From: Candidatus Dojkabacteria bacterium
GTDB lineage: Bacteria; Patescibacteriota; Dojkabacteria; J137
Length of the DNA: 36,646 nucleotides
Assembly (NCBI GenBank): GCA_020429545.1
Contig: JAGQLF010000001.1
Coordinates: 1 to 36,646, forward strand
Direction of reading: 5' to 3'
In this document: positions 2,131-35,803 of the stretch, piece by piece
Layout: every line of letters begins with the position of its first letter
Position numbering within the stretch: position 1 is the stretch's first letter
Notes under the pieces: generated by a model
Databases searched by the model: none
The model's input: the letters and a program-made list of their open reading frames with translations, nothing else
What the model was told of the DNA's origin: nothing
Translations under genes and position numbers: made by a program

Positions 2131-3132
2131 TCAAGTACTGCCAAGCCGTCTATACACCTCCTCTGCTTTATCAGTTATTTGCCTTCCTCTGTTTGTTCTT
2201 TGTATAAATCCTTTTTTTAGCAGAAATGGTTCGTATACAGTTTCTACTGTTTCTGGCTCCTCTGAAATTGAAGCAGCTAGTGTGCCAAGTCCTACGGGCC
2301 TCCCTTTAAAACTATCAATTAGACTGACCAATATCGCTCTATCTGTTCTGTTTAAACCATGTTCATCAATATCTAGTAGTTCTAAAGCTTCTCTTGTTGT
2401 ATCAATATCGATAGTGTCTTTATTGCCAACTGTTGCTAAATCTCTCACTCGTTTTAAAATTCTTATTGCTATTCTGGCTGTCATTCTGGCTCTTTTTGCA
2501 ATTTCTGCTGCTGCGCTATCGTCTATTCCAATACTCATCATTTTGGCTTTTTGTTTTACTAACTCAGTTAGTTCATTTTCCTCATAAAAATCTAGCCTAA
2601 AGTTCATACCAAATCTATCTCTTAGTGGAGCGCTAAGCATAGAAAGCTTTGTAGTTGCGCCAATTATTGTAAATTTAGGTAAATCTATTCTTAATGTTTT
2701 AGCATTTGGTCCTTTTCCAATAACAATATCAAGCACATTATCTTCCATGGCAGGATATAAAATTTCTTCAATTGTTCTTTTAAGTCTGTGAATTTCGTCA
2801 ATAAATAAAACAGAATATGGTTCAAGCGAAGTTAGAATTGCTGCCAAGTCTCCTGCTTTTTCAATTACAGAACCACTTGTCGCATGCAGTGTATAACCAA
2901 GCTCTTTTGCTATAACATATGCAAATGTAGTCTTTCCAAGTCCTGGTGGTCCATGAAAAAGTATATGATCCACAGCTGCATCTCTTTTCTTTGCAGACTC
3001 AATCATAATCTCTAAACTCCTCTTCTCTGCCTTTCTTCCAATTACTTCTTTAAAATTACTTGGTCTCAATGCCCCTTCAAATGCCACCTCATTTTCATTT
3101 TTAGCATCTGGTGTTGTAGCGTATTCATCCAT
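2131..3132 (-). CDS. ruvB: Holliday junction branch migration helicase RuvB
   Basis: Walker A GPPGLGKTT, Walker B LFIDEIH, AAA+ lid and C-terminal winged-helix region. Typical 333 aa. Lies 1 nt downstream of ruvA. TGA stop. Confidence 0.95.
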   Translation of the reverse strand: MDEYATTPDAKNENEVAFEGALRPSNFKEVIGRKAEKRSLEIMIESAKKRDAAVDHILFHGPPGLGKTTFAYVIAKELGYTLHATSGSVIEKAGDLAAILTSLEPYSVLFIDEIHRLKRTIEEILYPAMEDNVLDIVIGKGPNAKTLRIDLPKFTIIGATTKLSMLSAPLRDRFGMNFRLDFYEENELTELVKQKAKMMSIGIDDSAAAEIAKRARMTARIAIRILKRVRDLATVGNKDTIDIDTTREALELLDIDEHGLNRTDRAILVSLIDSFKGRPVGLGTLAASISEEPETVETVYEPFLLKKGFIQRTNRGRQITDKAEEVYRRLGST

Positions 3133-3830: not shown

Positions 3831-3972
3831 TAGGAAATCTTGCTTTATCAGCAGTATAGGCTTGTCAGTTCGAGTGAAATTTGCGATAGCAAATTTTGTA
3901 TCTAGAACTCACTTCTCGATACAATTCTACTTCTCCCGATAAATCGGGATCAGTAGAATCACTCGAAGTAAC
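3831..3972. repeat. structured intergenic repeat, family 1 (cloverleaf-like four-way junction), copy A
   Basis: P1 TTCGAGTG (3869-3876) / CACTCGAA (3960-3967) encloses hairpins 3877-3896, 3898-3922 and 3924-3959. A TAGGAAAT box lies 37 nt upstream. Confidence 0.75.
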
Positions 3973-4000: not shown

Positions 4001-4035
4001 GCTAGAAGCCCGTAGCTAGCAGCTAGTGGCTATTT
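4001..4035. repeat. 5 x 7-nt phased array (GCTAGAA GCCCGTA GCTAGCA GCTAGTG GCTATTT)
   Basis: GCTA or GCCC at 4001, 4008, 4015, 4022 and 4029. It contains the ruvC TAG stop (4023-4025) and shares the 13-mer GTAGCTAGCAGCT with array 756-790. Confidence 0.85.
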
Positions 4036-5259: not shown

Positions 5260-6477
5260 CTAAAAATTTAAAACTAAAACCAAATCCCCTGTCTTATTGT
5301 ATGGGTATTTATCTATTTCTATCCTTATTTTATCTCTTAAACTTTGCTTAATTGCTTTGATAGAATTTTTAAACCTAACTAAATCTTCTTCACCACCCAG
5401 ATGTAAAACACTTTCTTTTTCATTTTCAAAGTAGTTACCATATTTTACTACGTTCATTCCAATATTTTGCAATTCTCTGTTGTATAGAGAAGCTAGACCT
5501 CTCTGATCAGATGCATTATAAATTTCTAACTCTGCTTGTTCGGCAACTACATCCAAATCATCTACAAATCCCAGTAAAGACTCATCGATTATAAGATAGT
5601 TTGGTAAAAATTCCAGTGCCTTTTCAGCCGATTCCTGAATAATTGCTTGCTCAACACCCAAAACTTTATAGTTAATTTGCTTATCTACTCTAAAATTAGA
5701 TAAAAATTGAATCAATTCTGGCCTATTCATGTCTGTCTTTATATAAGGATAAAGTTTAGATTTATTCCACAACAAGTTGTACATCTGTATCAACCTTGAA
5801 TTTTTATAAAATAGTGCCTCATTAAATTTGGCATAGTCTTCTGTATATTCTTGAGTTAAAAAATCTTCATTAGATTTGATTTTATTCAATAAATTCCTAT
5901 CTATCTTTAAATAGTTCTTATCAAAAACTGAAGAATTGATAAGTAAGTATCTGTCAATTCTTACGCCTAGTAAGGAACTTACTGCGCTATTTAAAGCCAT
6001 TAGTGCCGGTTCATCTCCTGAGTATTCGTTAAGAAACGTTCTCAGAGAAATATCGTTGAATCGCTCAGACATAAAATAAGGAGATACCTCAACAAGCCTA
6101 ACAGCATCATTACCTCCAACAACAACATTGATTGAGTTGATGTATTTGTATGAATCAATCTCAGATATGGTATATACAACTGTGTTTATATTATTTAAAT
6201 CATAGACAATTGGGGGCTCAGCTTCTTGGTAATAACTCTCAAAGTTTATTGTGAAATATTGAAATAAATGAACTATAAGAACTGTTAATAGAAGAAATAT
6301 ACCTAAGAAATACCCTGATTGCTTTTTAATTTTAACTATCGATGTTAGGAAAGATTTGACTTTTGTTTGACTATTTTTCTTTTTATTTATAACTTGGCTA
6401 CCTCTACTTCTTCTGAGGAGACGCCGATATGACTCACTAAAGAATGTTTTGTTTAAGATTGAACTAATTCTACTCAT
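5260..6477 (-). CDS. membrane-anchored envelope protein, degenerate LytR-CpsA-Psr-like core plus LytR_C-like C-terminus
   Basis: One N-terminal TM helix. SLLGVRIDRYLLINSSVF resembles the LCP 'id.yv.vnf' segment. The C-terminal ELEIYNASDQRGLASLYNRELQNIGMNVVKYGNY matches the LytR_C pattern. Family assignment is weak. Confidence 0.4.
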   Translation of the reverse strand: MSRISSILNKTFFSESYRRLLRRSRGSQVINKKKNSQTKVKSFLTSIVKIKKQSGYFLGIFLLLTVLIVHLFQYFTINFESYYQEAEPPIVYDLNNINTVVYTISEIDSYKYINSINVVVGGNDAVRLVEVSPYFMSERFNDISLRTFLNEYSGDEPALMALNSAVSSLLGVRIDRYLLINSSVFDKNYLKIDRNLLNKIKSNEDFLTQEYTEDYAKFNEALFYKNSRLIQMYNLLWNKSKLYPYIKTDMNRPELIQFLSNFRVDKQINYKVLGVEQAIIQESAEKALEFLPNYLIIDESLLGFVDDLDVVAEQAELEIYNASDQRGLASLYNRELQNIGMNVVKYGNYFENEKESVLHLGGEEDLVRFKNSIKAIKQSLRDKIRIEIDKYPYNKTGDLVLVLNF

Positions 6478-6535
6478 AGTAATCTTATTGTACAGTATTA
6501 AGACTACTAGTTAAAAAATCTTAAAACAATTTTAA

Positions 6536-7165
6536 TTAGTCAAAGCTCTCTTCATCTTCCAGAATAAAGAATCCCTTTACTTCTTTTAGTGTATTTTTGA
6601 TTCTTTCTCTTATTGTTTTTCTATTTTTATTTTTCTGTTTATTCTTCTTTTTCTTTACTCCATGTACTTTTTCTTTTTTATCATTCTTTTTTGGCAACAC
6701 TTCATCCTGTTTCTCCACAATTTCTTGACTAATTTCAGTATTTTCTAAAATAATATTCTTTTTGTCAGCATCAATTGACACGCTCATATTCAAGTCTGCT
6801 CTATCTTTAGGGTCAATTATGCCACCGTTAATTCTAAGATCAAATGACATAACGAAGTCTTTCTTTTCATTCAGAAATTTCACTATCGGAACATTAATCA
6901 AATCTTCAGAATCTATTTGTGAATTAGGGAAATCAATATAATCATCTGGTCTAATTATGATGTAAATAATAAAACCAGGAATATTTAAAGGCAGAACGAG
7001 AAAAAAGAAGATTTTTGCTGTTCTTGGATTGTTGTACCTCTTCTTTGCATCTAAATATACCCAGATTGGTATTAATGACCACAATACAATAAGATATAGA
7101 AATGATATGAATAGTATATGGACTATGCTGACATGTTCAAGTAGGCTTTGTAAGCTTGTGATCAT
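6536..7165 (-). CDS. membrane protein with lysine-rich tail
   Basis: 209-aa ORF. Two N-terminal TM helices flank a WVYLDAKKR motif seen in many small membrane proteins. Hydrophilic middle and a K-rich C-terminus. No confident family. Confidence 0.55.
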   Translation of the reverse strand: MITSLQSLLEHVSIVHILFISFLYLIVLWSLIPIWVYLDAKKRYNNPRTAKIFFFLVLPLNIPGFIIYIIIRPDDYIDFPNSQIDSEDLINVPIVKFLNEKKDFVMSFDLRINGGIIDPKDRADLNMSVSIDADKKNIILENTEISQEIVEKQDEVLPKKNDKKEKVHGVKKKKNKQKNKNRKTIRERIKNTLKEVKGFFILEDEESFD

Positions 7166-7310
7166 ATTGTTTTTCTAATGAATATAATGTCCCTAAGGAG
7201 ATTTAGTGGTTGATTATAAAATGAGAAGTCTAATTGAACAAGTAAAAAATAATTTAAATCTCTATAGAAGATTGATAAACTAAAATAGAATTATTTCATT
7301 GAAGAATTAA

Positions 7311-10300
7311 GTGAAAATTACAAATATTAGAAGAAGTAGACAACTACTGCTTTTTGTTTTTGTTGCACTTTTTGGGATTTTACTTATTATTCCCTTTGAA
7401 AAAGTAAATATAATCAATGCAGCAACATTAACTTGGGATGGTGGTGGTGGAGACAACAATTGGAGTACATGTGCAAACTGGACAACAGATACATGCCCAG
7501 GTACATTAGATACTGTTATATTTGATGGTACAAGCACAAAAGATGCTGCAATTGATGCAAGTTTTACTGGGATAGTAAGATATCTTACTATAAGTTCTGG
7601 CTACACTGGTACCATTACTGCTAATAGATCGATTACAGTAGTATTAAATTTTGGACAAGCAGATGGCATTTTTGATTTGACAGATCAAAGTGGAACTTTT
7701 ACAACTACAAATATAACCGGAGGCTTGTTCACCGCATCATCTACAGATACTACTTTCAAAGGTCCACTTACCATTGATAATTCTAGTTATTTTGATGCAA
7801 ATGGAGGTAATGTAATTCTAGCTCCGGCCAGTAATGTAACCTATACTTATACCTGTAATAATACCGTTTTCAATCAGGTAACAATTTCACCTGTTGCTGC
7901 AAATGCTACGCTAAATATGACTGATAGTTGTAATTTTCCTTTAGGTAGTAACCCAACAATTAGTTCATCTTCAACAATCAAAGTTTATGGAGACTTAAGT
8001 GGTACTGGTGAGTTGGGATGGCCAGCTGCTAATTTACAAATCTATTCAACTGGTACATTAACTGGATTTAGTGGCTATAACACTGGTGCTTTGAGGCTTA
8101 CTGGAAAGACACTAGATTGGTCAGGGGCAACTACCTTTGCTATGACTGGTAATCTAACTATTGAATCTAGTGGTGGTCTGACACTTCCCTTGCCTACCGG
8201 TACAATACAAATATACGATTTAACTGTATCAACTTCTAGTACTTTTACAGCTTCTTCTGGGACTATGAATGTAAGAGGCGATATCACCCTATCAAATGGT
8301 ACGACATTCGATTCAAATGGAGGAACCATTAATTTAAATCCAACAGGGAATGTATCTTACGATTGCTATAGTCATACATTTGATTTAATTACTATTAATC
8401 CTGTAAATAATAATATTGATCTTAATATAAACTCTACATGTAACTTTCCTCTTGGTGATAATCCAACAATAACTGGAACCAATGTCGATTTAAATTTAGA
8501 TGGGACACTTTCTGGTACAGGTACATTAACAGCCAGTGCCGATAATCTATTTGTAGTTTCCGGCAGTATACTGTCTGGGTTTGATGGCTTAGAAGTTAGC
8601 AGACTTTATATTAATGGAGCAAATCTAGACCTAAGTAGTTATTCAACCTTAATAACCAACAGTAATTTTGAATTGATTTCAGGAAGTTTTGTTGCACCAT
8701 CTGGAGAAATGGAGGTAAAAGCAAATTTCTACCATACTGCAGGAACTTTTACACATAATAGTGGAACTATTAATTTTTCTGGAACTGGGATTCAAACAAT
8801 AACTGGCTCAACGACTTTTAATAATTTTACAAAAGTAATGACTGCAGATGTATCAAGTAGTTTAAGATTTACAAGTAATACAACTCAAACTATCGAGGGA
8901 GATATGACATTGCATGGATACAGCGATAGTCAAAGATTGAATTTGATTGCAAGCAGCAATACTGTTCAGTGGAATATTGATCCACAAGGAACAAGAGATT
9001 TACAGTATCTAAGTGTTAAAGATTCAAATAATATAAATGCAAGTGTAATAGTACTTAGTGGTACTGGAAGCAACGATGCAGGAAATAATACTAATTACGA
9101 TTTTGCGAATAGTGCCCCAGATGCTCCTAATACCCTAGGACCTTCAGGATATGTGAATGGAAGTTCAGATACCGATACAACTCCCACATTGACATTTAAA
9201 ATATCAGATGTAGCAAATCCTTTAGATACTCTACGATTTAGAATTCAGATTTCAGATACCAATGACTTTTCTAATGTTTTAGTAGATTACACATCTGCCC
9301 TAGCAGCTGCTGGAAGTAAAACTTTTACTGTTGGGCAAGCAGTAGGTAGCGGAACATATAATGTGGGGTCAATTGGACAAACTTTAGATAGTGATAGCTA
9401 TTATTGGAGAGTTAAGACCATAGATAACAGTGCTGCGGAATCTGCTTATTCAACTGCAAATTCAGGGTCAATTGCGTTTATAGTAGCTGGGTATCCTAAC
9501 TTACCTTATGCTTTTGGACCTGCGAATAAAATCGATGGGTCAGACTCAACCGAAGGACAACCTAACCTTTATTTTACCTTAGATGATCCTAATGCAGGGG
9601 ATACTGTTAAATACCAAATACAAATTTCCTTAGCAAGTGATTTTTCTACACAAGTTGTAGATTACACATCTGATTTAAGAGCACAGGGTGTTTCTAATTT
9701 TACTGTTGGTCAAGCAGCTGGTAGTGGAAGCTATACAACTGGAAGTTCTGGACAATCACTAGGGAGTGGAAGCTACTACTGGAGAGTTAAAGCAATTGAC
9801 ATTAATAATGAAGAATCTGTATTTAAAGCTGCTTCATTTGGGGGAATTGCTTTTGTAGTATCAAATCCTCCAGATGCACCAACCAACCTAGGACCTAATT
9901 TGTTAATTACTGGGGGCTTATCTACAGATGATACACCTACATTCTCATTTGACTTATCCGATTCAGATGTAGGAGATACAGTAAAGTACAGAATTGATAT
10001 TTCCACAAATAGTGACTACTCTGCTCTAGCCGCCAGTTTTACTTCGGCACTTAGTGCTCAAGGTTCCGCTAGTTTTACTGTAGGACAGTCTTTAAACGGT
10101 GGATCATATTTTCATGGATCTGTTGGAATGGATCTAAATGATGGTGACTATTATTGGAGGGTTAAAGCAATAGATAGCAATGGTGTTGAAGGTACTTACA
10201 CACTAGCTAACGCTGGTGGAATTGCCTTTTCAGTTGGAGGTAATCCGCCAGATACACCTTCCTCTCCAGGTCCAGTAAATCTAATAAATGGTTCTGTAAT

Positions 10301-12248: not shown

Positions 12249-12725
12249 ATGTCTTTAACTAAACAGGATTTACAATTAATTAAAGAAGTCGTAGGTGAGG
12301 TATTTGATGAGAAATTCCAGCCTGCATTTGATATTGCATTTGAACGTAGTTTTCAATCTGCGTTTGATAAAGCTTTCAATAAAGCTTTTGGGCCAGCTTT
12401 TGATAAGGCTTTTGATAAGGCTTTTGATATTGCATTTGATAGAGCTTTTGATAAAAGATTTAAACCTGCCTTCGAAGAGGCATTTGATGAAAAACTTACT
12501 ATAATTCAATCTATGATTTCAGAATCAGCAATTGCCCAAACAGACATAATGTTTAAATATTTTGCAAGTAAAGATGATTTAGATATAGCAGTTGAAAAAT
12601 TAACTAGTACAAGTTTAGATTCAAGAGTTATTACTTTAGAAAAGACAGTTGCTAATCATAGTTACAAATTAGATGTTGATCCGTTACCTTGGATTGAAGA
12701 AAAACTAAAATCTTTAAAAAATTGA
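12249..12725 (+). CDS. small protein with 16 consecutive xxFx (mostly xAFD) tetrad repeats
   Basis: 158-aa ORF. Phe occurs at residues 19, 23, ... 79 with exact 4-residue spacing (KAFDKAFDIAFDRAFD..). The C-terminal ~75 aa is non-repetitive and probably helical. TGA stop is followed directly by TAA. Confidence 0.6.
   Translation: MSLTKQDLQLIKEVVGEVFDEKFQPAFDIAFERSFQSAFDKAFNKAFGPAFDKAFDKAFDIAFDRAFDKRFKPAFEEAFDEKLTIIQSMISESAIAQTDIMFKYFASKDDLDIAVEKLTSTSLDSRVITLEKTVANHSYKLDVDPLPWIEEKLKSLKN
12297..12500 (+). repeat. 12-nt (4-codon) tandem repeat, about 17 units (consensus GCTTTTGATAAG)
   Basis: Read directly from the sequence. The repeat has no stops in other frames, which explains ORF-track artefacts 12276-12509(-) and 12295-12504(+). 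Confidence 0.9.
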
Positions 12726-16668: not shown

Positions 16669-16699
16669 AATTAAAAATTGCTTCTCCCTTTGGGAGAAG
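16669..16699 (-). terminator. candidate intrinsic terminator for the vapBC transcript
   Basis: 8-bp GC-rich stem CTTCTCCC-ttt-GGGAGAAG (16681-16699). On the minus strand it is followed by CAATTTTTAATT. There is no U-run on the plus-strand side. Confidence 0.45.
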
Positions 16700-16778
16700 G
16701 CGATGAGGGGAGAATTTCTTGTCTTTTGTTAATAATAAAATCCTATAGAAATGGATTTTCTTCGGGAGTATTCATTTC

Positions 16779-17204
16779 TTAACTTACTACTTCAATATCT
16801 AGTTTATCAGCATTTTTAATAAAATCTGAATCGAATGTTGCAATATTTTTGATTTTAGCAAGTTTCATATAATACAGGTGGGCAGAGTCTGTTGGCTTTA
16901 AGGTAGTTTTAGAATATATATCTATAAATTGCTCAACATTGTGCACTATAAAATTCTCATCAATTACCTCTAAGTTTTCCAACTTAATAAATTTTTCAAC
17001 TAACTGACACGCAGTTGATTTATCAATTCCATACTTTGAAAGAATATAAAGAACTTCGTCTAAAACAAATAGCGAAACATATAACTTGTCACTTTTTATT
17101 TTTTTGTAGATGCTTATTGCTTCAGAGTTGTCAGCATGCCCATCTATAAGAAATGCAATCACAAAACATGCATCAAGATAGACATGGAGTTTATCTGTCT
17201 TCAT
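16779..17204 (-). CDS. vapC: PIN-domain toxin VapC
   Basis: 141 aa. N-terminal VYLDACFVIAF holds the first PIN acidic residue, with further acidic residues (LDEVLY, FDSDF) at expected spacing. 14-nt overlap with the upstream antitoxin gene. Confidence 0.8.
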   Translation of the reverse strand: MKTDKLHVYLDACFVIAFLIDGHADNSEAISIYKKIKSDKLYVSLFVLDEVLYILSKYGIDKSTACQLVEKFIKLENLEVIDENFIVHNVEQFIDIYSKTTLKPTDSAHLYYMKLAKIKNIATFDSDFIKNADKLDIEVVS

Positions 17205-17442
17205 ATCTTTTATCTAATAATTCTTGGATTTCTTCGTTAGTTACTTGTCTACCTAATTTAATAATTCCAGCTAAATTCATAATATCATTAATTTTTTTCT
17301 TTCTTTTTTTTTGAACCTTAACCTCTCCCTCTTCCATAACCACTTCTAGCTGGTCGCCTTTTTGAAAACCAGCTTCCTTTATAATTTTTGTTGGCAATGT
17401 AATCATCATTGAATTACCTACTTTTTGTAGTTTAACTGTCAT
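17191..17442 (-). CDS. vapB: AbrB/MazE (SpoVT-AbrB) family antitoxin VapB
   Basis: 83 aa. MTVKLQKVGNSMMITLPTKIIKEAGFQKGDQLEV is a classic swapped-hairpin AbrB-like DNA-binding domain. Confidence 0.8.
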   Translation of the reverse strand: MTVKLQKVGNSMMITLPTKIIKEAGFQKGDQLEVVMEEGEVKVQKKRKKKINDIMNLAGIIKLGRQVTNEEIQELLDKRYEDR

Positions 17443-18810: not shown

Positions 18811-19044
18811 TTACACATATTTTGTGTAAGGCAAAAGTGCCATATGTCTCGCTCGCTTAACCGCAAGAGCCAATTTCCTTTGGTTAGAAGCACATACGCC
18901 TGTTCTGCTTGATGGCATAATTCGTCCTCTTGTAGAAATAAACTTCTCTAGTAAAGACACATTTTTGTATGTGATTTGATCCTCTTTACCTTTTAGAGGG
19001 CAACTTGCGACAACTGGTGCTTTGTATTTATTTGTATTAGCCAT
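18811..19044 (-). CDS. rpsR: 30S ribosomal protein S18
   Basis: [50 protein letters not shown] matches the S18 core. Confidence 0.9.
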
Positions 19045-19050
19045 AATTTA

Positions 19051-19085
19051 AGCTGTTAGCTTTTAGTCATTAGCACTTAGCTATT
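19051..19085. repeat. 5 x 7-nt phased array (AGCTGTT AGCTTTT AGTCATT AGCACTT AGCTATT)
   Basis: AG at 19051, 19058, 19065, 19072 and 19079. In mRNA (minus) sense it reads NNNNGCU x5 and ends 6 nt before the rpsR ATG. Confidence 0.85.
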
Positions 19086-19167
19086 TTGATTTGACTAAAA
19101 GCATTTTTCTAAAATATATTTTATTAAATTTATAATCTCTCTATTTGTTATCTTTTTTGATAAAAAA

Positions 19168-19202
19168 GCTAACTGCTAAAAGCTAGTTGCTAATAGCTAA
19201 AA
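19168..19202. repeat. 5 x 7-nt phased array (GCTAACT GCTAAAA GCTAGTT GCTAATA GCTAAAA)
   Basis: GCTA at 19168, 19175, 19182, 19189 and 19196. In mRNA sense it reads UUUUAGC UAUUAGC AACUAGC UUUUAGC AGUUAGC. The first UAG is the ssb stop codon. Confidence 0.9.
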
Positions 19203-19700
19203 AAGGTCTTTTGCATCAAACTCATCATCTGAATCCTCTTCCGTTTGTGCAGGCTCATCTGAACCTTCTAAATTTTCTTCTGGAAGATTATCTTCTCCAG
19301 TTTTTTCCATTAGGTCATCTCCTGCAACTTTTGCAGCATCAACACCCACTGGTGATCTGTCTTTAGAATTTAGAAGAAGCATATCGTTCAATTTAATTTC
19401 TGTTTTATAGTATCTTTCTCCATCATCTTTTGTTTTTGCTCTTGTTCTTAACTCTCCCTCTACATAAACAAGCATTCCTGTTGAAAGTACTTGTGCGCAG
19501 ATTTCGGCAAGTTTGTTAAAAGCAACGATGTTATGGAATTCTGCTCTTTCTTGAACATTTCCATCACCATCTTTCCAACTTGTATTTGTAGCAACACCGA
19601 ATGTGCAAACTACTACTCCATTTGATGATTCTCTTAGGATTGGATCTCTTGTCAGGTTTCCAATTAAGATTACTTTGTTTAAAGATCTTGATTTTGCCAT
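19197..19700 (-). CDS. ssb: single-stranded DNA-binding protein
   Basis: OB-fold N-terminus NKVILIGNLTRDP. Acidic C-terminal tail ending DDEFDAKDLF. Confidence 0.9.
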   Translation of the reverse strand: MAKSRSLNKVILIGNLTRDPILRESSNGVVVCTFGVATNTSWKDGDGNVQERAEFHNIVAFNKLAEICAQVLSTGMLVYVEGELRTRAKTKDDGERYYKTEIKLNDMLLLNSKDRSPVGVDAAKVAGDDLMEKTGEDNLPEENLEGSDEPAQTEEDSDDEFDAKDLF

Positions 19701-19727
19701 GTAAAAAAACTCTCTAATAAGTAAAAA

Positions 19728-20009
19728 CTATTTCTTAATAACCAAGAATCTAAGAACATTGTCCAGTAAAGACAATTCTCTTTCGAATTCATTGATGTGT
19801 GAAGGTTCAATATTCATAGAATATTCTATGTAGTGTCCTTCTTCAAACTTTTTGATTGGGTATGCTAATAATCTTTTACCCAAGTTATCGACCTCTTTGA
19901 TAGAACCACCTTTTGAAGACACAAATTTTTCTATCTGAGATGTAGTGTTCTTCTTAATATCTTCTAACAGTAGCGGTTTATACAAGATCATTACTTCGTA
20001 TGTTTGCAT
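19728..20009 (-). CDS. rpsF: 30S ribosomal protein S6
   Basis: MQTYEVMILYKP start. 93 aa. First gene of the canonical rpsF-ssb-rpsR order. Confidence 0.85.
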   Translation of the reverse strand: MQTYEVMILYKPLLLEDIKKNTTSQIEKFVSSKGGSIKEVDNLGKRLLAYPIKKFEEGHYIEYSMNIEPSHINEFERELSLLDNVLRFLVIKK

Positions 20010-20075
20010 TTCTCACCACAAATAATAAATAAATTTCCTTCGAAGATTATAATCGATTATGCTGAATTTGTAAAT

Positions 20076-20220
20076 TAGGAAATGGAACTGGCTATATTAC
20101 ATATGGTATGTAAGTTCGAGTGGCATAAATTTGACGAAGTCATAATTTATGATGTATCGAGAACTATACTATACATACTTCTCGATACAATCCTGATAAA
20201 TCAGGATCGCTCGAAGTGAC
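20076..20220. repeat. structured intergenic repeat, family 1 (cloverleaf-like four-way junction), copy B
   Basis: P1 TTCGAGTG/CGCTCGAA encloses three hairpins (20124-20151, 20154-20188, 20190-20207). It shares the upstream TAGGAAAT box at the same spacing as copy A. Confidence 0.75.
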
Positions 20221-20225
20221 GAGTA

Positions 20226-20837
20226 TTATTCAACACCATCCCTTCGCCTTAGAGAGTCTGATAAGGTTTGAGAAGACATATACTCAATACTACTTCCAGT
20301 TGGAATTCCTTTTGCTAATCTTGTAGTCTTTATATCTAAGTCCAAGTCTTTTATCTCGTTTGTTATGTATAAACTGGTCGAATCACCCTCCAGATTAGGA
20401 TTTAGACCAAAAATAATCTCTTTTATATCAGAATCAGATTTTAAACGACTCAAAAGCTCTCTTATTCTTATTTCGTCAGGTCCAATACCATTTACTGGTG
20501 ATATTATTCCATGCAATACGTGATATACACCTTTATACTCTCCTGTTTCCTCAATACTATAAAGTTCTAATGGAGTTTCTACAACTAGAATGATTGATTT
20601 ATCTCTTTGTCCATCATCACAAATTTCACATAAGCTTTCATTATCAGTTACATTAAAGCAGTTATCACAAAGTCTAATCTTTGCAGTTACATCTTTTAAA
20701 GAGTCCTCAAGTCTTGAAGCAAGTTTTCGATTTGATATAGAAAGATATAAAGCTATCCTATTAGATAGCTTTGGTCCCACTCCTGGTAGGGAGGAAAACC
20801 TTTCGCTTAAATCTCTAATGCTTCGGGGAAGAGCCAT
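20226..20837 (-). CDS. recR: recombination protein RecR
   Basis: HhH motif LPGVGPKLSNRIA. C4 zinc finger CDNC..CEIC. Toprim domain. Confidence 0.95.
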   Translation of the reverse strand: MALPRSIRDLSERFSSLPGVGPKLSNRIALYLSISNRKLASRLEDSLKDVTAKIRLCDNCFNVTDNESLCEICDDGQRDKSIILVVETPLELYSIEETGEYKGVYHVLHGIISPVNGIGPDEIRIRELLSRLKSDSDIKEIIFGLNPNLEGDSTSLYITNEIKDLDLDIKTTRLAKGIPTGSSIEYMSSQTLSDSLRRRDGVE

Positions 20838-20941
20838 AAAATAAATTCAAAAGTAAAAATTCAAAAATCAAAATTATTAATTAAGTTAGTATATTTTTAG
20901 ACCTATAGTTAACTTCATCAAAGTCTATAGTCTGTTCACAA

Positions 20942-20976
20942 CTAAAAACTAACACCTAAAACCTAGAAACTATTAA
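20942..20976. repeat. 5 x 7-nt phased array (CTAAAAA CTAACAC CTAAAAC CTAGAAA CTATTAA)
   Basis: CTA at 20942, 20949, 20956, 20963 and 20970. In mRNA sense the ybaB stop TAA is followed in-frame by TAG, then four more TAGs at 7-nt steps. Confidence 0.9.
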
Positions 20977-21416: not shown

Positions 21417-22901
21417 CTATAGAATGCTCTCTACTAATTCAGAATTATCAAATGATTCATCTTTAGGTTTTTCTTTAGTTTCTGTCTTAACCTCTTTTGG
21501 CTGCTCTTCCTCTTTTACTTCAACTTTTTTTATTGTGACTTTCGGTGCTGTAGATTTTTTTTGAACTTTCTTTTTATCAGAAGCAATTTCTAGTCCTTTA
21601 ATTTCACTATTCAATCGAGCAGCTGTATCTATAATCTTTTCTACATTGACTTTCTGATTTAGGTATTTAATATTAAAGTTATATTTATTTCCTAAAATTA
21701 ATTTTCCGGAATCTATTGATTCAAATTCACAAGTCTTAACAATAGCCCCTAATCTTTTATCGTCTTTTTCTATTAAATTTCCAAGAGCTTCTATAAAATC
21801 TTCACTACTACTGTTTTGTGAATCTGAATTCTGAATACTATTAGCAGGCTGTAAGTCTTCCTCAATATCTTTGACTTTTGACTTTTGACTTTTGACTTGA
21901 ATTTCTGGTTTATTAGTTTGATTAAAAGAAGCTTCTGCTTGAACATTATTAGATATATTGTTTAACTTAGCTAAGATATATACCTTTTTATTATTATAGA
22001 ACTTCTGATTTTCAATAATATTTAATAAAAGTGGAATTACACTCTCAAATTTTGAGTTGTTTACAATATATTCTAGTGCTTCTTCCAAAAAGAAATCTAA
22101 ATGAGTATCATCTATCTGCATTAGTACTTTTGATAGTTCATCATGGTCATTATTTTCTAAAGAAGATAAAAAGTTTATTATTCCTTCTTCTGGTAACAAA
22201 CCAAAAACTTTATCAATAGTCTCTTCAGTTATTTCATCTGATTCCGATTGGATTACTTTAGCGAGCATACTCTCTGAATCTCTAAAGCTCCCTCCAGACA
22301 ATTTATAAAGTTTGTCAATTGCGCCATCGCTAATTTTTATTTTCTCTTCTTTTGCAATATTCTTTATTTTCTCTTTTAGTTCATTTGATTCAGCAAGTTT
22401 AAAATCTAACCTTGTTACTCTAGATAAAATTGTAACTGGAATTTTATGAGGTTCAGTTGTTGCCAGTATAAACACAACGTGTTTTGGAGGCTCTTCTAGA
22501 GTTTTTAAGAGGGCATTAAAGGCCTCTTTTGTAAGCATATGAGCTTCATCTATAATATAAACTTTATAACCTAATTCAGCCGGTAAATAGTTCACATTAT
22601 CTCTTAGCTCTCTAATCTCATCTATCCCTCTATTTGAAGCAGCATCCATTTCAATAATATCAATGCTATCTTCTCTATATTCACTCAAGTCTCCTTTTTC
22701 TTTAAACATTTTGTCGTTGATGGCATTTGCGAATAATCTAGCAGTTGTAGTTTTACCAGTACCTCTTGGGCCAGAAAATAGATATCCATGTGAAAAGTTA
22801 TCATTATTTATGGAATGAATAAGAATATCCTTTATAGTCTGCTGTCCCTTGAGCTCAGAAAATTTTCTAGGTCTATATTTTCGATAAAGTACTGTGGACA
22901 T
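21417..22901 (-). CDS. dnaX: DNA polymerase III subunit gamma/tau
   Basis: Walker A GPRGTGKTT. Walker B IIDEAHML. Sensor SRVTRLDF. Low-complexity K/E-rich C-terminus. Confidence 0.9.
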   Translation of the reverse strand: MSTVLYRKYRPRKFSELKGQQTIKDILIHSINNDNFSHGYLFSGPRGTGKTTTARLFANAINDKMFKEKGDLSEYREDSIDIIEMDAASNRGIDEIRELRDNVNYLPAELGYKVYIIDEAHMLTKEAFNALLKTLEEPPKHVVFILATTEPHKIPVTILSRVTRLDFKLAESNELKEKIKNIAKEEKIKISDGAIDKLYKLSGGSFRDSESMLAKVIQSESDEITEETIDKVFGLLPEEGIINFLSSLENNDHDELSKVLMQIDDTHLDFFLEEALEYIVNNSKFESVIPLLLNIIENQKFYNNKKVYILAKLNNISNNVQAEASFNQTNKPEIQVKSQKSKVKDIEEDLQPANSIQNSDSQNSSSEDFIEALGNLIEKDDKRLGAIVKTCEFESIDSGKLILGNKYNFNIKYLNQKVNVEKIIDTAARLNSEIKGLEIASDKKKVQKKSTAPKVTIKKVEVKEEEQPKEVKTETKEKPKDESFDNSELVESIL

Positions 22902-23266: not shown

Positions 23267-23385
23267 CTCCCCTCGAGGGGAGTGGTATGAATTGAGCTTA
23301 GCGATAATTCATACCAAGGGGTGTTACTGTAACACCTTCCGGCCAACCCTAACAAGTTAGGATTGGCCACCCTCCTCAAGGAGGG
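23267..23385. repeat. structured intergenic repeat, family 2 (five consecutive GC-rich hairpins), copy C
   Basis: h1 23267-23282, h2 23284-23315, h3 23320-23336, h4 23341-23368, h5 23370-23385. Lies between the rseP stop and rpsU. Confidence 0.8.
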
Positions 23386-23395
23386 AAAATTAAAT

Positions 23396-25991: not shown

Positions 25992-26054
25992 ATGAATTTA
26001 TTATAAATGATAAGTTAACGAGTACCAAGTTTTTAGCACTCAGAATTTTGTTTT

Positions 26055-26176
26055 CCTTCTCCTTTTAGGAGAAGGTGGCATAAAGTTAAGCGTAGCGTAT
26101 ACTTTATGCCGGATGAGGTCTTGACCTCACCTTTCTTTTGCCTTCGGCAAAATTTATCCTCTCCTACAAGGAGAGG
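26055..26176. repeat. structured intergenic repeat, family 2 (five GC-rich hairpins), copy D
   Basis: h1 26055-26075, h2 26077-26110, h3 26114-26129, h4 26136-26152, h5 26158-26176. Lies between the rpsB stop and tsf. Confidence 0.8.
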
Positions 26177-26189
26177 AAAATGTCTATGT

Positions 26190-27170
26190 TTATTTTTTCT
26201 TTTTAGCCTTTTCCTTTTCTTCTTGAACCTTTTCTAAGATTCCTTTTGATTTTCCTCCACTTGATTTAGCCTTTGAAGTTTTTTGTGGAGCTTTTACAAT
26301 TTTCTTTCCTTTGAATGTTTTTGGCGTATTTCCTTCTGGCATATCAAAATCCACTGCTGATGAAGCATCATCTGAGTCACTTTCTTTTCTAATAATTTGA
26401 ACTTCTACCTTAGCATAATCTTTTAGGTGATGTTTTACTCCTCCACCTTTGTTTCCTTCTCTTACTGCTGCTGCCAATGTTTTTACCAATAGCGTAATTG
26501 AAGAAATTGCATCATCGTTTGCAGGAATTGGATAGTTAATCAAATCAGGATCTGAATTAGAATCTATTATTCCTACAATTGGTATATGCATTTTCACTGC
26601 TTCTGCTACTGCACTCTTTTCAAATTTTGTATCAACAATAACCATTGCTTTTGGCATTTGCTCTAATGTTTTAACTCCTGAGTAAAGTCTTGATAACTTT
26701 GCCCATTCTTTTTTCATTAATGAAATTTCGTATTTAGTTCTTCCTTCTACTCCTTTTTCAAATAAAGTTTCAAGTTCTCTTAATCTTGCAAAACTTTCTC
26801 TAACTTTCTTAAAGTTTGTTAACAATCCTCCTGCCCATCTTTGGTTGGTGAAATGTGCACCGCAGTTGACTGCATTATCTTTAACAATATTTGAAGCTTG
26901 TTTCTTTGTTCCTACAAATAGAACATTTCCATTTGCTGCTGCTTCACTTAAGAATTGTACTGCCTCTTTTAATTGAGCTTCAGTTTTTGTAACGTCAATA
27001 ATATGAATATTGCCTTTTACATCGTATAGGAATTTTCTCATTTTAGGATTCCATCTTGATGTTTCGTGTCCAAACTGAACACCTGCTTTAAACATATCTT
27101 TAACATTAGGGATTTCTACTTTTGATTTTGAAGCTGTAGATGGCTTCTTTGTATCTTTATTTTCTGCCAT
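26190..27170 (-). CDS. rpsB: 30S ribosomal protein S2 with K-rich C-terminal extension
   Basis: MFKAGVQFGHETSRWNPKM core. 326 aa, against roughly 250 aa for a typical S2, because of a ~70-aa acidic-then-basic tail. Confidence 0.95.
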   Translation of the reverse strand: MAENKDTKKPSTASKSKVEIPNVKDMFKAGVQFGHETSRWNPKMRKFLYDVKGNIHIIDVTKTEAQLKEAVQFLSEAAANGNVLFVGTKKQASNIVKDNAVNCGAHFTNQRWAGGLLTNFKKVRESFARLRELETLFEKGVEGRTKYEISLMKKEWAKLSRLYSGVKTLEQMPKAMVIVDTKFEKSAVAEAVKMHIPIVGIIDSNSDPDLINYPIPANDDAISSITLLVKTLAAAVREGNKGGGVKHHLKDYAKVEVQIIRKESDSDDASSAVDFDMPEGNTPKTFKGKKIVKAPQKTSKAKSSGGKSKGILEKVQEEKEKAKKKK

Positions 27171-34846: not shown

Positions 34847-34855
34847 TTTAAAATG

Positions 34856-34897
34856 AGTAAATAGTAATTAGTGTTGAGTATTGAGTAATTAGTTACT
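34856..34897. repeat. 6 x 7-nt phased array (AGTAAAT AGTAATT AGTGTTG AGTATTG AGTAATT AGTTACT)
   Basis: AGT at 34856, 34863, 34870, 34877, 34884 and 34891. Starts 10 nt from the MreB-like start codon. Confidence 0.85.
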
Positions 34898-34908
34898 ATA
34901 GTCTTGAA

Positions 34909-34943
34909 CACTAAATGCTCAGTACTAATTACTGGCTACTTTT
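34909..34943. repeat. 5 x 7-nt phased array (CACTAAA TGCTCAG TACTAAT TACTGGC TACTTTT), complementary type
   Basis: RCT at 34910, 34917, 34924, 34931 and 34938. ACTAATTACT (34924-34933) is the exact complement of AGTAATTAGT (34884-34893). Confidence 0.85.
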
Positions 34944-34990
34944 ACAAATTATATATGAAGATGTCTATATGAGGTAGTAATTTAAAAATA

Positions 34991-35063
34991 AGCTGAAACT
35001 GGGAATTGAACCCAGGACCTCACCCTTACCATGGGTGCGCTCTACCATCTGAGCTATTCCAGC
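34991..35063 (-). tRNA. tRNA-Thr (anticodon GGU)
   Basis: Minus strand: GCTGGAA TA GCTC AGATGGTA GAGC G CACCC ATGGTAA GGGTG AGGTC CTGGG TTCAATT CCCAG TTTCAGC + discriminator T. Cloverleaf with one G:U in the acceptor. CCA is not encoded. Confidence 0.9.
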
Positions 35064-35195
35064 ACTTACTTAAATTAACTTGTCAATTTAGTCTCGCCGA
35101 AGCTTAAGCGAAGGCGGACTATTCCAGCATTTATTACGAGTTAAAATTGTCAACTTAGTCTCGCCGTAGCTTCAGCGAAGGCGGGCTATTCCAGC
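35064..35195 (-). repeat. two tandem 66-nt units, each starting (minus sense) with the tRNA-Thr 5' decamer GCTGGAATAG followed by a GC-rich hairpin
   Basis: Units are 35064-35129 and 35130-35195. The hairpin is TAGTC-T-CGCC / GGCG-GACTA with loop GAAGCTTAAGCGAA or GTAGCTTCAGCGAA. They lie directly upstream of tRNA-Thr(GGU). Confidence 0.85.
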
Positions 35196-35337: not shown

Positions 35338-35342
35338 AAACA

Positions 35343-35420: not shown

Positions 35421-35424
35421 CTGG

Positions 35425-35788: not shown

Positions 35789-35803
35789 TTAAAGTGCTCA
35801 TCA

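Follow-up and report, generated by a model that had tools for sequence, protein, structure and literature searches.

Opposed heptanucleotide arrays in the ssb-rpsR spacer of a Candidatus Dojkabacteria genome and their relation to heptad arrays at gene boundaries across the lineage

The ssb and rpsR genes of a Candidatus Dojkabacteria (CPR) contig are separated by 152 nt that carry two opposed arrays of 7-nt units, five units each, in a window of 36.6 kb (the whole stretch of DNA analysed here). Arrays of the same kind recur throughout the lineage, lie flush with gene and tRNA boundaries and evolve in concert, and the two arrays of this spacer are able to pair. The reading that we favour, tentatively, is that the spacer is a slippage-born inverted pair of degenerate heptad arrays, belonging to a lineage-wide intergenic class, whose self-folding would keep the stop codon of ssb and the start codon of rpsR close to each other. 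The spacer is composed as follows.

19202-19168, minus strand: 5' heptad array (NNNUAGC) x5, in mRNA sense UUUUAGC UAUUAGC AACUAGC UUUUAGC AGUUAGC
19086-19167, minus strand: AT-rich middle of 82 nt, 14.6% GC, unconserved in relatives
19085-19051, minus strand: 3' heptad array (AANNGCU) x5, equivalently GCUAANN, in mRNA sense AAUAGCU AAGUGCU AAUGACU AAAAGCU AACAGCU

The UAGC core is unchanged in all five units of the 5' array, the first of which contains the ssb stop codon UAG (19199-19197), and the repetition of UAG every 7 nt places it in all three reading frames. The 3' array, reverse complementary in type to the 5' array, is followed by UAAAUU and then by the rpsR AUG (19044-19042), with 6 nt between the end of the array and the start codon. 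The phasing, the coordinates, the stop codon within the first unit and the 6-nt distance are exactly as described in a first-pass annotation of this DNA, and its remark that the spacer is unusually long also holds, the median being 20 nt over the 30 loci in which rpsR follows ssb. Both arrays pass a strict census, in which a period-7 array is defined by five units with at least three invariant columns, including a G or a C. TRF calls the array at 19164-19202 at period 7 (5.6 copies, 68% matches) and also at period 14 (2.6 copies, 82%), and the 3' array is under its detection threshold. The appearance of a conserved core with variable positions may come in part from the duplication of 14-nt double units. 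An assembly artefact is ruled out because the spacer is identical in an independent assembly from another sample (L081), and neither the spacer nor its middle recurs elsewhere in the window or in 11 related loci.

The spacer likely lies within an rpsF-ssb-rpsR transcript, since a conserved promoter-like site is located upstream of rpsF:

20046-20074, minus strand: promoter-like site TTTACA-17-TATAAT (11 of 12), upstream of rpsF

The 90 nt around this site are 89% identical to those of the relative L083. The operon context is supported both by this conservation and by the minus strand of the spacer, which carries neither promoter-like nor terminator-like sites; no intrinsic terminator (GC-rich stem followed by a U tract) was detected in the spacer on either strand. 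A putative internal promoter on the plus strand, TTGACT-18-TATATT (19091-19120), was rejected, the match being within chance expectation. The first-pass annotation had stressed that rpsR begins without an SD motif; the motif is indeed missing, but this does not set rpsR apart, as an SD-like motif is found at just 2-3 of the 35 window genes. Rfam 15 returned tRNAs alone at gathering score in the window. A ribosomal-protein autoregulatory leader or a member of another Rfam family was discarded for the spacer, where the best match at a relaxed threshold had E = 1.6, and so was a known RNA family across positions 18950-20300, with nothing below E = 1.5 at a relaxed threshold.

Heptad arrays are not confined to the ssb-rpsR gap. 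The window contains eight strict period-7 arrays against a mean of 0.03 in 300 Markov-1 simulations, 136 kb of related loci contain 18 at period 7 vs 0-1 at each other period from 4 to 11, and 120 kb of distant CPR loci contain one. Almost all arrays are intergenic (24/25), and 13 of the 20 testable ones lie flush with a stop codon, a start codon or a tRNA end, namely within 6 nt of it, where 3.8 were expected (P about 5e-6). The core varies from gap to gap (UAGC, UAGU, AGUACU, UGAAUUU, UCGAA), and palindromic 4-mers containing G and C occur in 14 of 44 unit consensus sequences vs 7.3 expected (P = 0.001). The other arrays of the window are the following.

751-791: heptad array (AGCUAGN) that fills the gap of 37 nt separating two convergent genes; about five UAGCNNN units on the minus strand start with the stop codon UAG of the gene at 786-1916
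4005-4034, minus strand: (UAGCNNN) array phased with the stop codon of ruvC (4023-4025)
20842-20884, minus strand: array of (UGAAUUU) type whose end is 5 nt upstream of the recR AUG
20936-20976, minus strand: (UAGNNNN) x5 array directly after the ybaB stop codon UAA
21867-21901, minus strand: perfect (TTTGACT) x4.1 repeat in the dnaX coding region, the sole coding array among 25
34852-34945, minus strand: opposed arrays (AGU-type, then ACUNAUU x6) between tRNA-Thr(GGU) and mreB, with 5 nt left between the 3' array and the start codon
35339-35421, minus strand: whole 83-nt tRNA-Thr(UGU)-tRNA-Tyr spacer, built as 5 x 7, a 14-nt loop and 5 x 7 (NAGU / ACUN cores), flush with both tRNA ends
35720-35790: paralogous copy of the opposed arrays of the tRNA spacer
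36150-36190, plus strand: (NUACUNA) array with 3 nt between its end and the start codon of the gene downstream of rpmB

Arrays of this kind thus stand at many gene and tRNA boundaries, sometimes single and partnerless (L087, 8314-8353), and the view of the spacer as an element specific to rpsR has to be abandoned: since similar runs are found at gene boundaries across the lineage and in many phage contigs, the spacer is not an rpsR-specific switch. A role in the expression of rpsR relative to ssb, which had been suggested from the sequence, is possible. The tRNA-Thr(UGU)-tRNA-Tyr spacer is predicted to fold into a hairpin with z = -2.5. Conversely, the recR-side array is not complementary to the ybaB-side array, and the whole ybaB-recR gap folds with z = +0.56; because such non-complementary pairs and single arrays exist, pairing is not the general reason for the arrays. 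Arrays at the ybaB boundary are also kept in L083, L090, L087, and L086, and those of the window, L083, and L090 hold (U)AG constant while the other positions vary. Between the window and L083, the ybaB-recR gap is 82% identical vs 59% at 4-fold degenerate sites. Neither this identity nor the boundary-flush placement is obviously explained by neutral slippage alone. The perfect repeat within dnaX points to recent 7-nt slippage in the lineage. Small dispersed elements also exist, including a block of about 120 nt in the recR-rpsF gap of the window, which is missing from L083, and a 72-nt repeat near the window tRNAs. Two sequence-level accounts of the cores were examined and set aside. Restriction-site decoys or avoidance (cores AGCT, CTAG, GTAC, TCGA) did not hold, as the window shows no depletion of these 4-mers and no concentration of AGCT between genes; nor did a preferential conservation of G/C cores, as with unbiased array detection the mismatch is 23.7% in G/C columns vs 19.9% in A/T columns, a difference that is not significant.

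Comparison with relatives indicates that the long spacer is restricted to a narrow clade. Relatives with an Ssb identity of at most 83% have spacers of 9-28 nt, and only the two closest relatives (Ssb 86-90% identical) have a long one, of 93 nt in L083 and 115 nt in L085; the ssb stop codon is UAG in this clade (Ssb identity at least 86%) and UAA, followed by 9-24 nt, in the other relatives. The first-pass annotation had set its proposal against the case of relatives devoid of phased units or arm complementarity, and both are present in L083 and L085, whose spacers have units phased at 7 nt at either end, their (A)GCU(A) cores being complementary, around a middle of unrelated sequence. The same boundary therefore hosts spacers of 152, 93, and 115 nt with differing units, and the distance between the arrays is not kept, being 82 nt in the window and shorter and different in L083 and L085. 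The units of the 3' array are all GCUAA in the window and all GCUAG in L083, a parallel change of all units that argues for slippage-driven concerted evolution. The divergence of the ssb-rpsR spacer is at or above the neutral rate. In distant CPR genomes, the same spacer has undergone independent short-period expansions (11 x ACTTTNN in L024; 3 x AGCTAANN in L011). No copy-number polymorphism was found between near-identical strains (L081 equals the window and L084 equals L083). A metagenome scan for further close relatives with the conserved rpsF promoter pattern gave no match, and a protein-guided one returned only relatives of at most 65% identity.

The ability of the two arrays to pair, which the first-pass annotation had proposed together with further pairing in 7-nt-shifted registers, is borne out on both counts. 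An inverted-repeat search identified arms at 19047-19087 and 19162-19202 (41 nt, 76% complementary), and a register scan gave a best register of 31 Watson-Crick pairs and one G-U pair over 43 positions (32/43), the next-best registers being shifts of 7 nt. The arm duplex has an energy of -29.6 kcal/mol vs -8.6 +/- 3.1 when the 3' arm is shuffled, and none of 500 shuffles was as low. The description of the spacer as structured is only partly upheld by folding: the arms are able to pair, and a forced long-range stem (-30.8) comes near the minimum free energy (-33.0) in the window spacer, but the whole-spacer z-score against dinucleotide shuffles is -1.5 in the window (-1.1 and -1.1 in L083 and L085), and in the minimum-free-energy fold the arrays are not paired with each other and local hairpins are used instead. 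The middle of the spacer is not featureless, as partial inverted copies of array units within it give rise to two local hairpins (19147-19158/19162-19173 and 19059-19069/19092-19102).

19147-19173, minus strand: local hairpin of the last 5' unit plus U6 (GUUAGCUUUUUU) with AAAAAAGAUAAC, 3-nt loop, 12-nt arms, 92% complementary, in the minimum-free-energy fold
19059-19102, minus strand: local hairpin with a perfect 11-bp stem, GCUUUUAGUCA / UGACUAAAAGC, in the minimum-free-energy and centroid folds

The 11-bp hairpin competes with the long-range pairing of the two arrays. In L083 and L085, the arrays are paired with each other over 11-14 bp in both the minimum-free-energy and the centroid folds. 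The three spacers do not lend themselves to the alignment needed for a formal covariation test. Arm pairs from one genome were compared with arm pairs mixed between genomes, and own pairs were no better than mixed ones (-28.2 vs -32.0; -23.8 vs -34.1); the complementarity of the arms thus derives from shared cores and not from co-variation. On the sense strand, an excess of G-U pairs over A-C mismatches is absent from the window spacer (1 vs 3) and from 19 examples of phage arrays (24 vs 29). Evidence that the spacer might hold an RNA structure under selection is weak.

Heptad runs of similar appearance occur in many phage contigs, and viral contigs commonly carry heptad arrays whatever the core. 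In L114 (IMGVR_UViG_3300044524_000063), the same design is repeated in five consecutive same-strand intergenic gaps: as in the window, 4-5 heptads are followed by a loop (0-15 nt) and by 4-5 inverted heptads, flush with stop and start codons, and each gap has a core of its own, as in the lineage of the window. In the phage, the loops are short and the arms match almost perfectly, whereas the arms of the window spacer enclose a middle of 82 nt and reach a complementarity of about 72-76%. Of 1110 viral heptad arrays, 226 (about 20%) are accompanied by an inverted counterpart at a distance of at most 200 nt, vs 17-27 in controls, and in the phage pairs L097 and L151 complementarity is limited to a 5-nt core and excludes the variable positions. 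A binder gene shared by the neighbourhoods of viral arrays was sought and rejected, as each protein family is present in 4 of 80 loci at most. For the TAGC core no special status emerged, the control cores CGTA and GACT being also abundant in IMG/VR among the matches listed. TAGC arrays follow stop codons with an orientation bias (35 vs 13 in IMG/VR, among the matches listed) that is confounded, because they terminate any reading frame that enters them.

Several known systems share features with these arrays. The STRR of cyanobacteria are short tandemly repeated repetitive heptanucleotides found in Calothrix and Nostoc; they resemble the window arrays in being lineage-specific tandem heptanucleotide families in non-coding DNA, and differ from them in consisting of a few fixed GC-rich heptamers in many copies. 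We know of no description of STRR as boundary-flush inverted pairs. The RNA targets of HutP and TRAP are NAG triplets at fixed spacing, HutP using UAG-N4 repeats, and HutP sites are formed by 2 x 3 repeats that control a terminator. The 5' array, (UAG-N4) x5, follows the HutP spacing rule, but the 3' array and many other arrays lack UAG and, unlike HutP sites, the spacer has no terminator. Heptamers are the commonest long simple repeats in prokaryotes (PMC4692102) and, according to a 2007 survey as cited there, are over-represented among the simple repeats of bacteria; the same article mentions three heptanucleotides of Calothrix. GGGAATC in Xanthomonas and GGGGA(T/C)T in Nostoc are intergenic heptanucleotide repeats (Rehm et al. 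2015, PMC4692102) that, like the window arrays, consist of 7-nt tandem units in about 4-5 copies, with a preference for about 4, are almost all intergenic and favour co-oriented genes, lie at most 50 bp from a stop codon or overlap it when one strand is considered and shortly upstream of genes with respect to the other strand, and keep the same boundaries in relatives with extensive variation in length and sequence. They are transcribed, and polymerase slippage has been suggested as their source (PMC4692102). In contrast with these G-rich or quadruplex-capable repeats, the window arrays are AT-rich and degenerate, with a 3-5-nt core and free positions, and those of the lineage have a core for each gap, many inverted pairs and a CPR host. 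The units of the spacer are not near-identical and have just a 4-nt core in common (68% matches by TRF), so that the spacer is placed as a variant, and not as a plain member, of the heptanucleotide class.

TAACTGA direct repeats of marine Beggiatoaceae, some Cyanobacteria and Bacteroidetes (MacGregor 2015, PMC4679880), for which a post-transcriptional role has been proposed, are also comparable, occurring in 2-6 copies a few nt upstream of starts that lack ribosome-binding sites, including those of ribosomal-protein operons; as in the window arrays, the units carry stop codons, and such arrays therefore cannot extend into genes. However, TAACTGA is one fixed heptamer genome-wide, with 169 direct sets and one inverted (PMC4679880), whereas the window lineage has many cores, frequent inverted pairs and arrays that also start at stop codons and tRNA ends. 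The operators/parS sites of the ribbon-helix-helix (RHH) protein omega of pSM19035 consist, like the window arrays, of contiguous 7-bp units in direct and inverted orientation, with 7-10 heptads per site and one protein dimer per heptad (PMC9499535, PMC4627068). Omega sites have one fixed heptad consensus, overlap a promoter and have a cognate gene, and the window arrays, which are separated by a variable gap unlike omega heptads, depart from this type of operator: their cores vary, no promoter was detected on the minus strand of the spacer, and no shared protein family neighbours the arrays of viral loci. Lastly, REP/BIME elements, T7 RNase III sites and stabilising stem-loops are, like the spacer, long imperfect inverted repeats between cistrons of one transcript, with a potential influence on stability, processing or coupling (PMC4423207). 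Unlike the spacer, intercistronic stem-loops have no phased 7-nt units and REPs are dispersed near-identical copies.

In the favoured reading, 7-nt replication slippage would create the arrays and keep them alike; being tolerated only in non-coding gaps, they would gradually come flush with cistron boundaries. In the ancestor of the clade, a spacer of about 10-25 nt with a UAA stop codon would have grown to 93-152 nt, its first unit supplying the UAG stop codon. This spacer would be transcribed as part of the rpsF-ssb-rpsR mRNA and, because both arrays share short palindromic cores (AGCU, CUAG), its ends would be able to zip in several registers, forming an imperfect stem that closes exactly at the ssb stop codon and about 6 nt before the rpsR AUG. 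A large insertion would be tolerable in an operon almost without SD motifs because self-folding would hold the stop and the start close, and ribosomes that translate ssb through the stem base would then make the rpsR start accessible, which would preserve translational coupling. We do not think that the spacer is a dedicated, tuned regulator.

Against this reading of a self-folding, slippage-born pair stands the view that the arrays are purely neutral debris, made and mirrored by slippage and quasi-palindrome template switching, with no effect on expression, and persisting only through the self-regeneration of arrays with at least four units. The concerted evolution of units, the near-neutral divergence of the spacer, the period-14 substructure that suggests stepwise duplication, the perfect heptad repeat within dnaX, the independent expansions in L024 and L011, the abundance of any-core arrays in viral contigs, and the lack of an RNA-level signature (co-variation, G-U) all speak for it; we consider it unlikely on account of the boundary-flush placement (P about 5e-6), the enrichment of palindromic cores, the conservation of the ybaB-recR arrays above the neutral level, and the retention, in three lineages, of a 93-152-nt insert within an operon that is highly expressed and a genome that is compact. 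We rather doubt the opposite view of a dedicated cis-regulatory or processing stem, which would hide the start of rpsR, or would serve as an RNase III or stabiliser site and so uncouple the mRNA levels of ssb and rpsR, in the manner of the intercistronic sites of phage T7 or of intergenic stem-loops that fix subunit ratios through selective RNA processing and stabilisation. The pairing of the arms far above shuffles, the closure at the ssb stop and near the rpsR start, the layout kept in three diverged genomes with the long-range stem in the centroid folds of L083 and L085, and the tRNA-tRNA spacer, where a hairpin of the same design (z = -2.5) stands at a place in which endonucleolytic separation would be needed, are in agreement with such a stem, and operon stoichiometry is known to be tuned by intergenic stem-loops (PMC4423207). 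Yet whole-spacer z-scores reach only -1.1 to -1.5, arm-specific co-variation and a G-U excess are lacking, the sequence turns over at a neutral rate, no Rfam family matches, and the same arrays are found where no stem is possible.

The partnerless arrays, inexplicable by pairing, would be accommodated if each heptad core (UAG-N4, GCUAA, AGU or ACU) were the contact of a multimeric or cooperative factor that marks cistron boundaries, such as a HutP-/TRAP-like ring or a cold-shock or S1 OB-fold protein on RNA, or an omega-like RHH protein on DNA. This proposal, which appears rather improbable to us, draws on the strictness of the 7-nt register, in which free positions separate invariant cores of 3-5 nt, on the constancy of (U)AG in the arrays next to ybaB in the window, L083, and L090, on a ybaB-recR gap that is more conserved (82% identity) than 4-fold sites (59%), on the placement of arrays flush with stops, starts and tRNA ends, on the phage pairs L097 and L151 that are complementary in the 5-nt core only, and on the fit of (UAG-N4)n to the HutP recognition rule. 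Against it, the core differs from gap to gap, so that a single sequence-specific binder cannot serve all arrays; moreover, the mismatch in G/C and A/T columns (23.7% vs 19.9%) does not differ significantly, the distance between the arrays is not conserved among the window, L083, and L085, no protein family is common to array-bearing viral loci, and a comparison of 10 window proteins with Pfam (3 without a match) gave no nucleic-acid-binding candidate beyond Ssb and the Ruv proteins. Precedents exist in the binding of omega to 7-bp heptads in direct or inverted orientation (PMC9499535, PMC4627068) and in the suggestion of S1, Csp, and CsrA for TAACTGA heptamers (PMC4679880). A wider form of the proposal, to which we give a small chance, is that, in genomes with very little use of SD sites, phased 3-5-nt cores placed exactly at stops, starts and tRNA ends act as a punctuation read by a periodic binder or by the terminating or initiating ribosome; it could organise the termination, re-initiation and processing of polycistronic RNA, could be common to or exchanged with many phages, and its binder could be an OB-fold, cold-shock or S1-type protein or a ring-shaped RNA-binding protein. 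The insertion of a small mobile element (MITE or REP-like) with heptad-built terminal inverted repeats would explain the inverted arms around an unconserved core, and small dispersed elements do exist in the window, namely the ~120-nt recR-rpsF block and the 72-nt repeat near the tRNAs. It is nevertheless highly improbable, considering that no second copy is found in the window or 11 related loci, that the unit sequence is particular to each gap, and that the arms are tandem arrays and not unique terminal repeats.

If the arrays were only slippage debris, they would still document an active 7-nt slippage regime in one Dojkabacteria clade that reshapes gaps even in a core ribosomal-protein operon and, taken together with the phage data, that heptanucleotide arrays are very often inverted pairs flush with cistron boundaries, an arrangement that is not described in PMC4692102 or PMC4679880. 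If they act on RNA, they would bear on how polycistronic genes are delimited, coupled and processed in SD-poor bacteria and phages, and would provide a function for heptamer repeats that have been known for decades in cyanobacteria, Xanthomonas, and Beggiatoaceae.

The 152-nt ssb-rpsR spacer lies in a window of 33% GC from Candidatus Dojkabacteria (WS6, candidate phyla radiation, CPR); a Dojkabacteria protein at NCBI matches the window Ssb with 100% identity, and the closest genome matches are Dojkabacteria assemblies. The first-pass annotation had described two arrays of five 7-nt units (heptads) bracketing an 82-nt AT-rich middle, and our reading of the sequence agrees exactly.

The rpsF-ssb-rpsR region, in the order of transcription (array units in mRNA sense)
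19728-20009, minus strand: rpsF (Pfam)
19197-19700, minus strand: ssb (Pfam)
19202-19168, minus strand: 5' array, 5 x 7, UUUUAGC UAUUAGC AACUAGC UUUUAGC AGUUAGC, starting with the ssb stop codon
Between the two arrays, minus strand: spacer middle, 82 nt, 14.6% GC
19085-19051, minus strand: 3' array, 5 x 7, AAUAGCU AAGUGCU AAUGACU AAAAGCU AACAGCU, followed after 6 nt by the rpsR AUG
18811-19044, minus strand: rpsR (Pfam)

The arrays form inverted arms of 41 nt that are 76% complementary; the best register comprises 31 Watson-Crick pairs and one G-U pair across 43 positions, with the 7-nt-shifted registers next best. The arm duplex reaches -29.6 kcal/mol versus -8.6 +/- 3.1 in shuffled arms (0 of 500 attain it), and an identical spacer is present in an independent assembly from a different sample. 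The paired arrays are a genuine, non-random feature. Upstream of rpsF is a promoter-like site rated strong (TTTACA-17-TATAAT); the 90 nt around it are 89% identical to the related Dojkabacteria locus L083. No promoter-like or terminator-like site is found on the minus strand within the spacer, so the spacer most likely lies inside a single transcript. The absence of a Shine-Dalgarno (SD) sequence at rpsR, reported in the first-pass annotation, is correct but not a special feature, since SD-like motifs precede only 2-3 of the 35 window genes (for one of the three the start was miscalled). The motif is clear at rpsF (GGUGA) and at gene 26190-27170, which is probably rpsB, judging by synteny with related loci.

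The ssb-rpsR junction in the window and in related Dojkabacteria loci (Ssb identity to the window)
Window: 100%, spacer 152 nt, ssb stop UAG
L083: 90%, spacer 93 nt, ssb stop UAG
L085: 86%, spacer 115 nt, ssb stop UAG
L090: 83%, spacer 21 nt, ssb stop UAA
L091: 82%, spacer 24 nt, ssb stop UAA
L086, L087, L089: 78-79%, spacers 20, 19 and 10 nt, ssb stop UAA
L092: 76%, spacer 9 nt, ssb stop UAA

More distant Dojkabacteria have spacers of 9-28 nt, and the median over the 30 loci in which rpsR follows ssb is 20 nt, so that 152 nt is indeed as unusual as had been proposed. Since the UAG stop and the long spacer occur only at Ssb identities of at least 86%, the long spacer is a recent, clade-specific expansion of a tight junction in one Dojkabacteria clade. 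L083 and L085 retain the layout, not the sequence: the former has ~3 units, an unrelated middle and ~6 units of GNNGCUA, the latter UUUUAGC UACUAGC UACGAGC CUUGAGC UCCUAGC, an unrelated middle and UAGCUUG UAGCUAG UAAUUCG GAGCUCG AAACUAA. These two relatives thus do not show what the first-pass annotation had named as refuting it, a spacer lacking phased units or arm complementarity. The same spacer has expanded independently with other short repeats in two distant CPR genomes, namely 11 x ACTTTNN in a 111-nt spacer of the Patescibacteria chromosome OZ245922.1 (L024, ~6405-6520) and 3 x AGCTAANN, of period 8, directly upstream of rpsR in L011 (~2996-3090).

Between the window and L083, identity is 59% at 4-fold degenerate sites (n=624), 89% in the rpsF 5' region, 100% in the rpsF-ssb gap and 82% in the ybaB-recR gap. 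For the ssb-rpsR spacer the alignment is poor, with 46% identity relative to the longer sequence and ~65% within the 3' array. The 3'-array units are all GCUAA in the window and all GCUAG in L083, a parallel change in every unit that indicates concerted evolution by unit turnover. Moreover, the dnaX coding region contains a perfect (TTTGACT) x4.1 repeat (21867-21901), which encodes part of the C-terminal low-complexity DnaX sequence (...QVKSQKSKVKD...); it arose recently by 7-nt slippage and is tolerated in frame. Together with a period-14 substructure of the 5' array, this repeat points to ongoing 7-nt slippage.

Period 7 is prominent window-wide in Tandem Repeats Finder and in a simple self-match scan. 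When an array must strictly have 5 units and at least 3 invariant columns, with a G or C among them, the window contains 8 of period 7 versus 0.03 expected from Markov-1 simulations. On this count the window together with seven related loci (136 kb) reaches 18, with 0-1 at each other period from 4 to 11, and the total for ten distant CPR loci (120 kb) is one. Arrays are intergenic in 24 of 25 cases, and of the 20 whose gaps have room to spare, 13 are no more than 6 nt away from a stop codon, a start codon or the end of a tRNA (3.8 expected, P ~5e-6). Inspection of all intergenic gaps in the window reveals further examples of this design.

Further heptad arrays in the window
tRNA-Thr/tRNA-Tyr spacer, 35339-35421: the entire spacer consists of two 5 x 7 arrays around a 14-nt loop
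tRNA-Thr/mreB gap: opposed arrays, AGU-type and ACU-type
ybaB-recR gap: (UAGNNNN) x5 right after the ybaB stop, (UGAAUUU)-type units right before the recR AUG
ruvC stop: in register with a UAGCNNN array
Stop of the gene at 786-1916: in register with a UAGCNNN array

In after-stop arrays the gene's own stop codon often serves as the first unit, as for ssb (window and L085), the window gene 786-1916, dnaB in L086, with (UAAGNNN) x4, and prfA in L083; as 7 cannot be divided by 3, arrays of this kind carry stop codons in every reading frame. Window stop codons are TAA (19), TAG (12) and TGA (4), a TAG share that is high for 33% GC, and at several genes the TAG stop opens an array as its first unit. 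The L090 locus (83% Ssb identity) has 12 period-7 segments within 12.6 kb. At 7012-7051 and 7698-7770, its array on the ybaB side is a self-hairpin of 16 bp, UUUCUAGUGGCUAG UAA CUAGUCACUAGAAA (the gap as a whole folds at -23.5 kcal/mol), and opposed (AAUUCGA)/(NCGAAUU) arrays occupy the gap after recR.

Other repeats coexist with the heptads. A 12-nt tandem repeat, TTTGATAAAGCT x7.8 (12363-12455, 75% matches), gives a 4-residue repeat in the hypothetical protein of ORF 12249-12725, for which Pfam yields no match. The recR-rpsF gap contains a ~120-nt block (20105-20225) with terminal inverted repeats ACTTCGAG...CTCGAAGT, not present in the corresponding L083 gap and loosely similar to a block in the ruvC-ruvA gap (3864-3970); the block could represent a small mobile element. 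Copies of a ~70-nt repeat, 91-97% identical (35054-35125, 35147-35192, 35631-35702), are interspersed among tRNA genes and contain the GC-rich hairpin TCTCGCCGAAGCTTAAGCGAAGGCGGA. Separate from the heptad arrays, GC-rich CTCC...GGAG hairpins (e.g. CTTCTCCCTTTGGGAGAAG, CCTCTCCTACAAGGAGAGG) occur in otherwise AT-rich gaps (16683-16703, 23270-23395, 26040-26180 and others) and are probably terminators or REP-like elements. Lastly, the stretch 16779-17442, flanked by the S41 peptidase gene and prfA, carries genes for a PIN-domain toxin and an AbrB/MazE-like antitoxin, both assigned by sequence reading and Pfam calls on similar L086 genes; L083 has a different ORF of 158 residues there.

The pairing potential of the arms is real, but signatures of a selected RNA structure are weak. 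Relative to dinucleotide shuffles, whole-spacer fold z-scores are -1.5 (window), -1.1 (L083) and -1.1 (L085); only the tRNA spacer reaches -2.5. The minimum-free-energy fold of the window spacer (-33.0 kcal/mol) uses two local hairpins (19147-19173, 19059-19102), and a forced long-range stem comes close at -30.8; in L083 and L085 the two arrays pair in both minimum-free-energy and centroid folds. Across genomes, the window 5' arm pairs at -32.0 with the L083 3' arm versus -28.2 with its own, and the L085 5' arm at -34.1 versus -23.8, indicating that complementarity derives from shared palindromic cores (AGCU, CUAG) rather than arm-specific co-variation. G-U pairs are not preferred over A-C mismatches in the window arms (1 vs 3) or in 19 phage examples between co-oriented genes (24 vs 29). 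Partnerless arrays exist (L087 8314-8353 occupies an entire 39-nt gap) and the ybaB-recR pair is non-complementary (z = +0.56), so pairing is not what unites these arrays as a class. GC-containing palindromic 4-mers are nevertheless enriched twofold in unit consensus sequences (14 of 44 vs 7.3 expected, P = 0.001), in favour of self-complementarity.

Similar arrays recur in viruses. Arrays of (TAGCNNN)x4 and of the control cores CGTA and GACT are all common in IMG/VR viral contigs, some of which are rich in arrays with many different cores. Among the matches listed, 92 of 102 TAGC arrays are intergenic, 226 of 1110 heptad arrays have a reverse-complement partner (at least 17/21 matches, within 200 nt) versus 17-27 in reversed or complemented controls, 97 adjacent opposed pairs show a median gap of 19 nt and arms of ~43 nt, and no protein family is common to the surroundings. 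In the phage contig IMGVR_UViG_3300044524_000063, near-perfect opposed 4-5 x 7 arrays occupy five consecutive gaps between genes on one strand (6387-9282), flush with stops and starts, with cores ATTCGTA, AGTAGCA, TAATTCG and GAGTCAA.

Among the long simple repeats of prokaryotes, heptamers ranked first in abundance in a 2007 survey, as cited in PMC4679880 and PMC4692102. Those of Xanthomonas and Nostoc prefer ~4 units and lie between co-oriented genes, either overlapping a stop codon or no more than 50 bp away from one; they are transcribed and differ among close relatives (PMC4692102). The TAACTGA repeats of Beggiatoaceae lie immediately upstream of start codons without ribosome-binding sites, also within ribosomal-protein operons, with S1, Csp or CsrA as proposed binders (PMC4679880). 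Neither degenerate-core heptads as boundary-flush inverted pairs nor heptad arrays in CPR bacteria appear in the published heptad accounts (PMC4692102, PMC4679880, PMC9499535, PMC4627068). The description that best fits the ssb-rpsR spacer is an inverted pair of heptad arrays generated by slippage and evolving in concert, a variant of this known, functionally unexplained intergenic class.

Regarding mechanism, we tentatively favour, at somewhat below an even chance, a reading in which the palindromic cores would allow both spacer ends to zip into a stem closing at the ssb stop and the rpsR start, which would keep the cistrons adjacent and make the insertion tolerable. Purely neutral debris, to which the unit turnover could belong, is unlikely beside the palindrome enrichment and the flush placement. 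A dedicated regulatory or processing stem, close to the control of rpsR suggested in the first-pass annotation, would draw on the strong arm duplex and is rather improbable; the element is one of many such arrays and not a bespoke rpsR regulator. The same low standing is given to a periodic protein-binding array: HutP binds UAG-N4 repeats, and the cores here differ from array to array. Direct as well as inverted 7-bp heptads are targets of the Omega repressor (PMC9499535, PMC4627068). A mobile element is very improbable. The ssb-rpsR element is probably ordinary for its genome, and it is the genome-wide boundary-flush heptad architecture, with its recurrence in phages, that merits systematic study.
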